Source: a virus. Taken from it: a stretch of DNA of 10,155 nt. Below, piece by piece: positions 3,001 through 6,000 of this stretch. Positions within the stretch are counted from its first letter, which is position 1. Each line of letters starts with the position of its first letter. A program made the position numbers. The stretch lies in the UHGV virus genome UHGV-0264998, one strand, 5' to 3'.

Positions 3001-6000
3001 TGGCCTTTTGCAGAGCGAACGATAATGTCAGCGCGTATCGCCTCAGTGATTACCTTGCGGGGTCTGGCTCGATTCTTCTCGTGCCGTTCACGTTCGCGCA
3101 TCCGCTCGGCCATCTTCGGCGGCAGCACAGGGGAAAGCCCACGGCTAACGCCAGATGTGCGGGTGCCGGATGTGGCAGACCGTGCAACGATATAAACCGC
3201 TTCGTCTGGATTGAAAACGTGCGGCACACGCTCAGGGTAAACATGATCACATCTACCCAGCGGCAAGGCGAAATCCGGGCGCACGTCAGCGACACGCTCC
3301 ACAGCATGGAAATTACAGGTACTCATTACGAACCTCGGTTAATTAAAAACAGGCTTTCAGATGCCGCGCAGAATGCGGCTTGCGGGGACTCATGCGCATA
3401 GATTGGTGTGGTAGTACCGGGTCGGTGCGCACTCGGTCTTGCAGGGCGCATTCCACAGTTGGGCGTTAGCGACCAGCACGTTTGCCAGCGGAGCGCTGCG
3501 CAACCAGAGCGCGGTATTGTTCATCGTACTGGCGATGGCCGGGGCCATACCCTGATTGCTGCGCCCACTGCGAAAGCTGGTCATACGCTGCTATAAACTC
3601 AGCATGTGACATTCCGACAGGTTGCGCGGCAGTCTGGCCGTTCGGGACGTAACCGGTAATGGAACCGCCAGCCATACGCTCTTGCAGATACTGAACCGCA
3701 CGCGACATCTGCGCGGGATCGCCAGACATGACCATCCGTTCAAGGGTTGATTGCGTCCCGGCGTCGAGCGTGCCAGCGTACTGCAACATCGCGTCAACTG
3801 TACCCTGACCTAGCTGGCTTTCGACAGACTGGTGAAACTGCCCCATCAGCCCATGAAGTTCAGGAGTCAACTCAACAGTGGTGCCATCCTGTAATTGCAG
3901 TGTGTCGCCCACTTGCGCCCCAGCGCTGTCAGCGTTCTGGTCTTGCTGATTTGCGATATTGCCATTATTCCATTGTCCGCCATCATTGCCGTTAACGGGT
4001 TGGGTACGGAGGAAATCAGCATCAGCAGGCGCAGAGCTAAAGCGGGATGCGCCATTGTCAGCGCCAACAGGTGCGGCCATGTACGGCGATTGCTGCGGTG
4101 CAGCATCAGCACCGGAAAGGTACGGATTAACATTCTGGTCAGTCATAATCAATTATCTCCATAAGCGTTGGCTCGGCGGTGTGCCAGTTCAAGAAGCAGC
4201 ATGTGCGCTGGAATGCAGCGCTCAGGGATACGCTTCTGCCCGTGAATCATCTTGTTAACGTCTTGACGGTCAATCTGATAAACACGGGCAATGTCGATCT
4301 GGCGGAGGTTCAGGATTTCAGAAAGGAATTTCAGTTGCTCGCTACAGGCAATAGCAGTTCGCGGTTGCACTAACACGGTAATCATCGGTATGTCCTCAGT
4401 TAAATTTCACAGTTAAATCAGGCCACGTTTGCGTAGCCATCGACGTTCGCCCGCTGAACCACGCGGGCGCTGGCGGCGTCCACGGTCTGCGGCTGGCTGT
4501 TCTGGTGCGGCCTCGCTTCGGAGATTCTGCGTCAGGATATCCCAGCCCCGCGACTCAATCGGGGCGTATCCTTCACGCTGTTCGTCGAGATTGGCGTACC
4601 GCGCCGGGTCGAATGCAGGGTTAATGATTTCGTTGTTGTCGCCCATCACGCTACCCCGCTGTATTTGGAATTAACGGATTCCAGAATGTCAGGATAACCC
4701 CAGCGATTTCGCAGGCAGCGCTGCACATGCGCGACTACCTCGACAGGGACACCCAGCTTTTCGGCGATCTCGGCGGCAGGCCAACCGAATCGCTCTAACT
4801 TGTGGATTTCATCTAAATCAGTAGGCACTAACTTGCGCACTACTTTCGGCTTCGCTGGCTTCACCTTCAAGGGTTTCTGTACCGGGTGCGTGTGGGCGTT
4901 GCTAAAGCGGGAATGGGCGATAGCCAGCACCGTCTCAGGGCGAATCAGCATATCGCGGGCAATCATAAACTCTGTATCGCGGTGCAGCTTGCCGGGCTTA
5001 TAGCGGTTGCGGATGGCGTTGTACTCCGCCAGAGTAATATCAGCATCGTCTTTCCAATGTTCGGCCAAGTCATCGACATAGACGCCACGGATTACAGCAT
5101 CAATATCGGTCAGGGTATGACCTGTCTCCGCTGCAATCTCTTCATTGTTCTTAAGGTGCTTATGAGCCAGCGCGTTAATGCGCTGGATATCGGTAATACT
5201 CAAAGTCATAAATTAAACTCCGAATCAAATTTGATCTGGTCAGTAACCAGCGTATGAATCAGCGCAAGGCTTGACGCGGTATGTGTGCCCGACTTGCGGG
5301 CGTTGTCGTACATGGTGCGTGCGGCGCTCTGATAGTTCGGCGGCAGGGTTGCAAACCATGCTCTAAACTCTGCGGGTGTCATTGCTCGTCATCCTCAAAT
5401 ACACGGTTAAATGACGTGTCCGGCGCTTCTACGGCGTTGGCCTTGAGGAAGTTGACCGCACTGGATAACTCCGCTGCGGCCATGCGCGACTCGCCAGCCT
5501 TATCTTCCTCAAGGCGACGGATGAGAGCCTCAAGAAGCAAGCCTTTTAAGCGCCATGTTTCATTTTCAAACTCGGTCTTTGTCATTGGTCATCTCCATTA
5601 AGTGGCAACAGGCCTAGCGCACGGATGTGCTGAATCACTTCTTGATGCACGGGCTTCGGCAGAAACAAACGGCGGGCAATGGCGGCGTAAACTTCATCAG
5701 GAGTCTTGCGTACCGGATGCACCCGGCCATTGAAAACCCGGTCGGACAATCGGACGGCTTTCCAGCGACGCGAGCCATCCGGCCTTTTCATGCGGTTCAG
5801 TACAGCGGCCAGACACTCCCACGGCTCGCAATCATTCAGCAGGCAATATCGCTCCAGCGGTGTAGATACCTCGCGAATGATGGCCTCACGATTAAGGGTC
5901 TTGCGATGAGGTTCGGCCAGTTCATCCCAGTTGTACCCATTCAGGGCGAAAGCTAGTTGTGCGGTGATGAGCGCATCCGCACGCGCAGCACGACGCTGCG

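Follow-up and report, generated by a model that had tools for sequence, protein, structure and literature searches.

The window analyzed here, a 10,155-nt stretch of the virus genome UHGV-0264998, carries a long series of minus-strand genes, one of which encodes a protein of 226 amino acids (aa) with a low-complexity N terminus. Reading along the minus strand, a serine recombinase gene is followed by a 1.2-kb noncoding gap, a DEAD helicase gene, and five small overlapping open reading frames (ORFs) that are translationally coupled. The gene order then continues with a helix-turn-helix (HTH) gene, the gene for the 226-aa protein, a variable cassette, a capsid gene, an HNH endonuclease gene, two small ORFs, and an endonuclease VII gene (Table 1). 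From profile evidence we conclude that the 226-aa protein is a truncated member of the Autographiviridae head scaffolding lineage.

An earlier inspection of the sequence (the original prediction) had described an ORF here, with its strand left unstated, and a 2-nt gap to the upstream HTH gene. Both are borne out, and the strand is minus. The 681-nt ORF begins with an ATG (4146-4144) that has a GGAG sequence 9-10 nt upstream, and it ends with the stop codon at 3466-3468. The junction with the preceding gene, whose TGA occupies 4149-4151, reads TGA-TT-ATG, and the two genes are likely to be translationally coupled. The 78-aa product of this upstream gene has only weak matches to transcriptional-regulator PHROGs (E = 0.003), and a scan for sigma-70 promoters and terminators around the gene for the 226-aa protein stayed at background level. 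The RefSeq orthologue (L001 11306-11986) has the same frame and length and is labelled a hypothetical protein. Pairwise comparisons of 11 orthologues give ratios of nonsynonymous to synonymous substitution rates (dN/dS) of 0.11-0.19 in every segment, and the gene is therefore real.

Table 1. Genes and protein features of the window, with the evidence for each
Feature	Coordinates	Strand	Evidence
Gene for the 226-aa truncated head-scaffolding-protein homologue	3466..4146	-	ORF, hhalign, dN/dS
Region homologous to the C terminus of Bonnellvirus/LIMEzero head scaffolds, codons 125-226	3469..3774	-	hhalign
Predicted C-terminal helix-turn-helix and basic tail, codons 181-223, putatively capsid-protein-binding	3478..3606	-	AlphaFold2, charge
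Acidic N/D/G/A/Q-rich intrinsically disordered N-terminal region, codons 1-78	3913..4146	-	Composition, pLDDT, dN/dS
Composite linear motif NPY...QSPYMAAP, codons 7-26	4069..4128	-	Common to the phage scaffold disordered region
Upstream 78-aa HTH-like gene	4149..4385	-	Weak regulator PHROG matches
137-aa HTH_23 protein, variable cassette between scaffold and capsid genes	2913..3326	-	Pfam HTH_23, E = 4e-4
Major capsid protein with a T7-supergroup HK97 fold, 331 aa when counted from the RefSeq-equivalent start	1719..2714	-	phrog_267
HNH endonuclease, directly downstream of the capsid gene	1193..1768	-	Pfam HNH_3, E = 1e-19; phrog_99, E = 2.5e-57
Endonuclease VII-like protein, distal end of the morphogenesis-side module	56..484	-	Pfam Endonuclease_7; phrog_423, E = 9e-16
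68-aa small-terminase-like protein, same operon as the 226-aa protein	5379..5585	-	phrog_891, BLASTP
DEAD/RecQ-like helicase, opening the long operon whose last gene is that for the 226-aa protein	6057..7901	-	Pfam DEAD, Helicase_C
Serine recombinase, resolvase/invertase type	9102..9788	-	Pfam Resolvase, E = 5e-25

The relationship to phage head scaffolds is most direct at the level of profiles. With hhalign, the family of the 226-aa protein (A2/A5) matches the phage scaffold family (A3) with a probability of 93.8-95.6% and E values of 1.7e-7 to 1.2e-8. The alignment spans 102 columns and pairs residues 125-226 with scaffold residues 309-411, last residue to last. One reversed and 20 column-shuffled controls score at most 22, with E values of at least 0.03, compared with 64.5 for the real comparison, so the match is not compositional. 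The phage scaffold ends in ...SPQYNQHYNVLVEQRKQAKALGY and the 226-aa protein in ...HRQYDEQYRALVAQRSAGKRAGR, and both C termini conserve SGDPxQ and a terminal QY[DN]xxYxxLVxQRxxxKxxG[RY]. The phage proteins also share the overall layout of a long low-complexity N terminus followed by a helical part.

Intermediate sequences lead to the same family. A HMMER search over 1.84 billion representatives matched only nine clusters to the family of the 226-aa protein. One of these clusters, P0085, is 47% identical to the 226-aa protein (profile E = 1e-41 to the family) and itself matches phrog_1018, 'head scaffolding protein' (E = 1.6e-10), the same PHROG that Lidtsur gene product 40 (gp40) matches with E = 8e-23. 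The UniRef cluster P0046 is already named 'Scaffolding protein'. When the AlphaFold2 model is compared with BFVD by Foldseek, the top matches are all Autographiviridae scaffolding proteins, with that of LIMEzero first; the E values are weak (1.8e-3 and worse) and the model is of low confidence, and we take this result as supporting evidence only. A further clue to identity is the neighborhood, in which the major head protein gene lies two positions downstream. The head scaffolding gene of Bonnellvirus/LIMEzero-type phages lies immediately upstream of the capsid gene.

The low-complexity N terminus is real, and it is shorter than the ~100 residues of the original prediction, extending over about 78. 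Residues 1-78 are 78% Q/N/G/A/D/S/P with a net charge of -6, and AlphaFold2 assigns them a predicted local distance difference test score (pLDDT) below 50 and no secondary structure, as expected if this N-terminal third is intrinsically disordered. The description of the region as almost devoid of hydrophobic residues holds insofar as it is hydrophobic-poor, but it is somewhat overstated, since V/I/L/M/F/W/Y/C make up 17.5% of residues 1-80 (Q/N/G/A/D/S/P, 77.5%). The 226-aa protein stands out clearly among all 15 proteins of the island: the maximum Q/N/G/A/D/S/P fraction in any 80-aa window is 0.79 in it and at most 0.54 in all the others. The corresponding value for the disordered region of the Lidtsur scaffold is 0.80. 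The entropy of 21-residue windows in the tail is 2.6-3.4 bits, which indicates a biased composition and not a simple repeat.

This region is conserved. Every homologue retains it, even the two distant ones with 47-50% identity, and in 11 orthologous genes its dN/dS of 0.125, versus 0.107 for the helical body, indicates purifying selection about as strong on the tail as on the body. The tail is consequently neither drifting nor a lineage-specific expansion. The original prediction would have been refuted by homologues lacking the region or by an expansion without conservation, and neither was observed. Three database proteins (P0063, P0064, and P0087) look at first like homologues that lack the N terminus. 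They begin in an overlapping frame (window 3867-4133, minus strand) of the segment that codes for the disordered region and switch into the frame of the 226-aa protein at different points, and we rejected them as frameshift chimeras. All three are single-member clusters from metagenome or run assemblies that look like indel or sequencing artefacts, and they would mislead searches for homologues without the N terminus.

Conservation within the tail is concentrated in short motifs: N7-P8-Y9, Q19-S20-P21-(Y22), P26, R35, D42, W59, and N66/Q68. The first of these form a composite, NP[YF] followed 9-23 residues on by SP[YF]x[AS]xP, that occurs once each in 12 of 12 members of the family and also in 17 of 18 phage scaffolds. 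Some family members carry an SPYAAPP that is identical to the phage sequence. In shuffles that preserve composition, SP[YF].[AS].P alone has p = 3e-4 to 2e-3 and the composite has p <= 1.5e-5; the composite was defined after inspection of the data, and these probabilities are therefore optimistic. Local alignment of the disordered regions alone gives only modest empirical significance (p = 0.005-0.2) because of their composition, and the shuffle test of the motif is the stronger of the two. The tails otherwise differ. Those of the 226-aa family have 75-88 residues, are N/D/G-rich, and carry a net charge of -3 to -7, whereas those of the phage scaffolds have 151-187 residues, are near neutral, and contain 45-59% P+Q. 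Judged from sequence, the tail of the 226-aa protein resembles a phage scaffold tail that has become shorter and more acidic while keeping one motif block. The original prediction considered such a region unusual in a compact phage-like operon, a view that does not hold for a head-scaffolding homologue whose phage relatives have still longer low-complexity N termini. The disordered N terminus is a conserved, inherited part of the scaffold family and not an anomaly.

In the AlphaFold2 model, which was built with a 32-sequence alignment, the disordered segment (residues 1-78) leads into a small hairpin at 82-92 and then into helices spanning 95-159. Residues 160-176 form a flexible linker, and helices 181-198 and 205-223, with a pLDDT of ~75, make up a helix-turn-helix at the C terminus. 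The isoelectric point of the whole protein is 4.5, and its last 22 residues have a net charge of +4. The N-arm of the island capsid protein has a net charge of -5. From the model and these charges we infer that this terminal helix-turn-helix could be a capsid-protein-binding domain.

The characteristics of Autographiviridae head scaffolds of the Bonnellvirus gp40 type (phrog_1018/phrog_36307) can be compared with these results. Profile and sequence similarity to this family is present. The gene is close upstream of the major capsid gene, from which a single variable cassette separates it. A helical body with a basic C-terminal helix-turn-helix is predicted, with only moderate confidence (AlphaFold2 pLDDT of 60-75). 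The low-complexity N terminus with NPY...SP[YF]xAxP, a feature of the Bonnellvirus/LIMEzero subgroup, is also found, in a region that is less than half the phage length and has another composition.

One neighbor relevant to a scaffolding function is the gene for the major capsid protein. Its product matches phrog_267 with E = 1.9e-70 and relatives of solved structure with E = 9e-81; the entries for these relatives have seven chains each, which fits T=7 asymmetric units. Among Autographiviridae, its identity to the capsid protein is 54-57% in Bonnellvirus phages (Lidtsur, J8-65, glasur, and others) and 50% in LIMEzero. This protein is presumed to be the partner of the 226-aa protein. A 68-aa ORF of the same operon matches phrog_891, 'terminase small subunit' (E = 3.3e-4), which is the family of the Lidtsur small terminase subunit (TerS), and BLASTP aligns it with Lidtsur TerS at 47% identity over 36 aa (E = 5e-5). 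The distant relatives L004 and L005 conserve it as well. This TerS-like protein may redirect packaging to island DNA.

The cassette between the scaffold and capsid genes encodes a 137-aa protein with a weak match to phrog_836, 'late transcriptional activator'. It is swappable, being absent or replaced in many otherwise collinear relatives (e.g., L009-L011, L013, L014, L028, and L031-L036). On the other side of the capsid gene, the longest HNH ORF has a TTG start at 1768 and shares 50 nt (1719-1768) with the end of the capsid gene. Its RefSeq orthologue starts 96 nt further downstream and has 159 aa versus 191, so the true start of this gene is uncertain. The helicase matches the PADLOC model of DpdF over the full model length (E = 1e-274) with no other Dpd genes present, and this model may have been built partly from the helicase family of these islands. 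The 226-aa protein itself has no PADLOC match.

Between the helicase and serine recombinase genes, the 1.2-kb stretch at window 7902-9101 has no ORF longer than 40 aa with detectable similarity. Within it, positions 8596-8771 hold two tandem 88-nt copies that are 72% identical, each with a TGTACATGTA palindrome. The stretch might serve as an origin, operator array, or packaging site. Rfam has no match anywhere in the window, a megablast search of the whole window against phages found no match, and a scan of the Lidtsur genome for a repeated phage-RNA-polymerase promoter motif yielded no convincing repeat family.

The window is part of a chromosomal island. It matches 148 of 5426 complete Escherichia coli genomes, always as one copy and almost always in the chromosome. 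In E. coli strain 550 (NZ_CP058223), the island is flanked by a 32-nt exact repeat of a tRNA-Leu 3' end, with the two copies 14,803 bp apart, and has a tyrosine integrase at one end. In different hosts, the length between 24-nt copies of the attachment site (att) core is 14,627-15,158 bp (L001, L009, L010, L013, L024, L030, and L038), and it is thus tightly conserved despite mosaic gene content. Close relatives of the island are found in Enterobacter, Kluyvera, Kosakonia, and Trabulsiella, as well as in gut metagenomes. Wherever the contig extends that far, they have the capsid gene without exception, and this gene is 89-100% identical across loci. Neither Pfam and PHROG scans of the island ORFs nor the RefSeq annotation reveals a portal, large terminase, protease, tail, or lysis gene, and the only island ORF longer than 350 aa is the helicase. 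The Lidtsur genome has 42,291 bp, of which the island length is a fraction of 0.35 (14.8/42.3 kb).

Two more distant relatives, L004 (10001-13644) and L005 (2630-6208), have syntenic helicase, TerS-like, HTH, scaffold-like, HNH, and endonuclease VII genes. Their homologues of the 226-aa protein are 47-50% identical to it, and neither a capsid gene nor the 137-aa cassette is present in them; the module of L005 directly abuts a tyrosine integrase. The island family therefore has scaffold-only and scaffold-plus-capsid versions, with the scaffold-like gene belonging to the family core and the capsid gene being accessory. In the capsid-less relatives, the homologous protein would consequently be able to act only on the capsid protein of a helper.

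Two side observations concern copies of the island. One metagenome copy (L046 6365-6445) retains only the last 27 codons of the gene for the 226-aa protein and is a natural deletion variant; it also lacks two upstream small genes and keeps the capsid gene and the rest. Beyond the window, between the recombinase and the tRNA-Leu (L001 18634-19404), there is a gene for a DUF3800 protein that matches the PADLOC candidate defence family PDC-M04A (E = 1.5e-21). Together with two hypothetical genes, it occupies the att-proximal end and resembles the defence cargo hotspots of other satellites.

On the strength of its gene content, the island looks like a satellite of virulent Bonnellvirus-like podophages. 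We think it probable, with good but not overwhelming confidence, that the 226-aa protein is a truncated internal head scaffold of the Bonnellvirus/LIMEzero type (226 versus ~400 aa) carried by this ~15-kb satellite-like island. If so, its basic C-terminal helix-turn-helix would dock on the acidic inner face or N-arm of a capsid protein during infection by the helper phage, and this capsid protein might be the island's own, the helper's, or both. The 226-aa protein would then chaperone procapsid assembly on the portal of the helper. Its mobile acidic tail would stay inside the shell, with its conserved motifs probably touching either a component of the helper head (portal or core) or further copies of the scaffold. 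As has been proposed for P22 gp8, the negative charge of the tail would probably help to drive the scaffold out as DNA comes in. The outcome may be small, satellite-sized capsids from which helper DNA is excluded.

This last step is suggested by a scaffold of half length, the island's own capsid variant, and the conserved ~14.8-kb island length. Small capsids would be likely because a half-length scaffold is combined with an island that is 0.35 of the helper genome. This size ratio is that of P4 to P2 and of SaPI1 to 80alpha, where capsids are T=4 versus T=7. A still bolder proposal is that these islands are the first recognized satellite family of virulent T7-supergroup (Autographiviridae, Bonnellvirus-like) coliphages. 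The half-length scaffold, alone in the capsid-less relatives or together with the island capsid protein, would change the product of assembly from a T=7 shell to a small one, perhaps T=4, that accommodates ~14.8 kb. In addition, NPY...QSPYxAxP would be a docking peptide that is shared with the helper scaffold and captures the helper portal or core to nucleate satellite heads. We regard this full scheme as tentative, and somewhat less probable than its failing in at least one part.

Several results weigh against interpreting the 226-aa protein as a satellite scaffold. The protein itself matches no Pfam family and, at E <= 10, none of the PHROG scaffold families; its sole match there is phrog_1052, 'head assembly' (E = 0.43), and its membership in the scaffold family consequently depends on profile-profile and transitive evidence. 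Pairwise BLASTP comparisons with Lidtsur gp40 (E = 0.58 and 10) and with the J8-65 scaffold are not significant, which is why profiles were needed, and tblastn against 50,697 phage records found no match. A sequence search of PDB with the family profile returned only a chance match to DegP (E = 1.5), a search with the phage scaffold profile returned none, and Foldseek comparison of the AlphaFold2 model with PDB gave nothing below E = 1. The model has low overall confidence (mean pLDDT of 54), and the most conserved block of the family, residues 79-124, has no detected counterpart in the phage scaffolds. Among phages, the closest capsid protein shares only 57% identity with that of the island. 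No circular or terminally redundant metagenome contigs, which would be a sign of excised or packaged copies, were found. Redirection to small capsids is the weakest step, since a genome-size ratio and analogy are its only basis. In T7-like phages, specific sites are where concatemers are cut and packaging is not by the headful, which makes the size argument softer here than for P4 or SaPI1.

The C-terminal homology to phage scaffolds would be just the same if the 226-aa protein were a decoy that mimics the helper scaffold C terminus and poisons helper head assembly as an anti-phage defence, with no satellite capsid being made. Relatives without a capsid gene fit such a role, as does the setting of the island, since the tRNA-Leu site is a described defence-rich hotspot (10.1101/2025.09.15.676423) and the island carries PDC-M04A and a helicase that matches the DpdF model. 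However, an intact capsid gene that is this well conserved across loci, a TerS-like gene, and a fixed length are expected of a packaged element, and interference and piracy coincide in known satellites (PMC5644958, PMC8569155). We therefore consider defence by interference alone to be unlikely, while giving it more weight than the other alternatives. Decay of a T7-like prophage into a remnant, with the 226-aa protein a nonfunctional relic and its low-complexity stretch drifting, might account for phage-derived genes that are scattered among nonphage genes, for the frameshifted database copies, and for the deletion variant L046. This explanation is highly improbable given a dN/dS of 0.11-0.19 in all segments, including the disordered one, and synteny and length that are conserved across at least five genera. 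Furthermore, the frameshifted entries are single-member and are broken at different positions, as sequencing errors would give.

Two remaining possibilities derive from suggestions in the original prediction. The protein could be an accessory of replication or recombination with a disordered tail for recruiting partners, in the manner of the tail of a single-stranded DNA-binding protein (SSB); such a role would be at home in an operon with a helicase and several small DNA-binding-like ORFs, to which the gene is translationally coupled. The same operon also contains the TerS-like morphogenesis gene, and the 226-aa protein has specific homology to scaffolding proteins, no oligonucleotide-binding (OB) fold or SSB domain, disorder at its N terminus, and a basic C terminus instead of an acidic tip. 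The SSB-like role is accordingly a very poor fit. The related notion of an interaction hub is loosely compatible with a scaffold that contacts the capsid protein and probably other head components. Self-aggregation driven by a prion-like, Q/N-rich tail, with condensates forming apart from capsid assembly, is the least probable of the four. A local patch at residues 51-71 is 52% Q/N and the region is predicted to be disordered, whereas over residues 1-78 Q+N reaches only 24%, Asp accounts for 10%, and there are eight acidic residues with the net negative charge already described. Moreover, the conserved positions form short motifs and not a compositional pattern.

If the 226-aa protein is a truncated scaffold, a function and a testable mechanism can be proposed for a protein that is labelled hypothetical in hundreds of enterobacterial genomes. 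By itself the protein is fairly ordinary, and the interest comes from its location in an island that is widespread and holds a minimal set of capsid, scaffold, and TerS-like genes related to those of virulent T7-like phages. To our knowledge, the known satellites of E. coli (elements of the P4 type, phage-inducible chromosomal islands [PICIs], and capsid-forming PICIs [cfPICIs]) exploit other phage types. We found no published satellite that has a capsid and scaffold of its own and exploits Bonnellvirus, T7-like phages, or Autographiviridae, in literature that was covered incompletely and might hold an earlier description, and the island at tRNA-Leu is apparently undescribed so far. If the satellite reading is correct, it would extend satellite biology to podophages that phage therapy commonly uses and would have consequences for predicting phage efficacy. 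The full-length and truncated scaffolds, which have the same C terminus and disordered-region motif, also offer a natural comparison of how scaffold length and disorder set capsid size, and the island context makes scaffold-based capsid hijacking directly testable.

Among known proteins, those closest to the 226-aa protein are the scaffolds of Bonnellvirus and LIMEzero (Lidtsur gp40, J8-65 gp33, and LIMEzero gp39; phrog_36307/phrog_1018), which are homologous to it through their C-terminal ~100 residues. They likewise have a low-complexity N terminus with one NPY...QSP[Y/F]xAxP and are encoded upstream of a related capsid gene. They are longer (374-411 aa) than the 226-aa protein, with a neutral, P+Q-rich disordered region in place of an acidic, N/D/G-rich one and a central part of ~110 residues that has no detected counterpart in it. 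Their genes adjoin the capsid gene in a phage, whereas the gene for the 226-aa protein is in a chromosomal island with a variable cassette before the capsid gene.

The scaffold of P22 (gp8) has a flexible, negatively charged, unstructured N terminus that is mobile inside the procapsid and a C-terminal helix-turn-helix that binds coat protein (10.1101/539965). The acidic disordered N terminus and predicted basic C-terminal helix-turn-helix of the 226-aa protein are similar to these in architecture only. There is no sequence or fold match, and the P22 scaffold entry 9kyw ranks ninth in the Foldseek comparison with a nonsignificant E value of 2.7.

With respect to the island as a whole, cfPICIs are chromosomal islands with genes for capsid proteins of their own, and they rely on a helper for the rest (10.1101/2022.09.08.507074; PMC13612085). 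They have a complete HK97-type head and packaging set that consists of capsid, portal, protease, head-tail connectors, TerS, and TerL, the large subunit of the terminase. The island described here has only the capsid, scaffold, and TerS-like genes, and a helicase takes the place of the alpA-primase module. Assignment as a cfPICI was rejected, as there is no portal, protease, connector, TerL, or int-alpA-pri module among its ORFs, and gene content also argues against a P4-like element, a PICI, or a PICI-like element (PLE). The Ccm protein of the Staphylococcus aureus pathogenicity island (SaPI) SaPIbov5 is a satellite-encoded homologue of the helper capsid protein that changes capsid geometry (PMC8569155). 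Here the likeness is to the neighboring capsid gene, at 57% identity to a Bonnellvirus one, and not to the gene for the 226-aa protein; the island differs in having both capsid and scaffold homologues.

[quoted passage not shown] The resemblance would be one of mechanism and not of family, and homology is not expected. In contrast to CpmB, the 226-aa protein appears to be a true phage scaffold homologue of nearly full architecture, including the disordered-region motif. Its island also encodes its own capsid protein, and the presumed helper is a virulent podophage. What would bring the two systems together is that the 226-aa protein shares its C terminus with scaffolds of the presumed helper type, that its island is 0.35 of the genome of such a phage, and that the existence of capsid-less relatives implies an action of proteins of this kind on the helper capsid protein.

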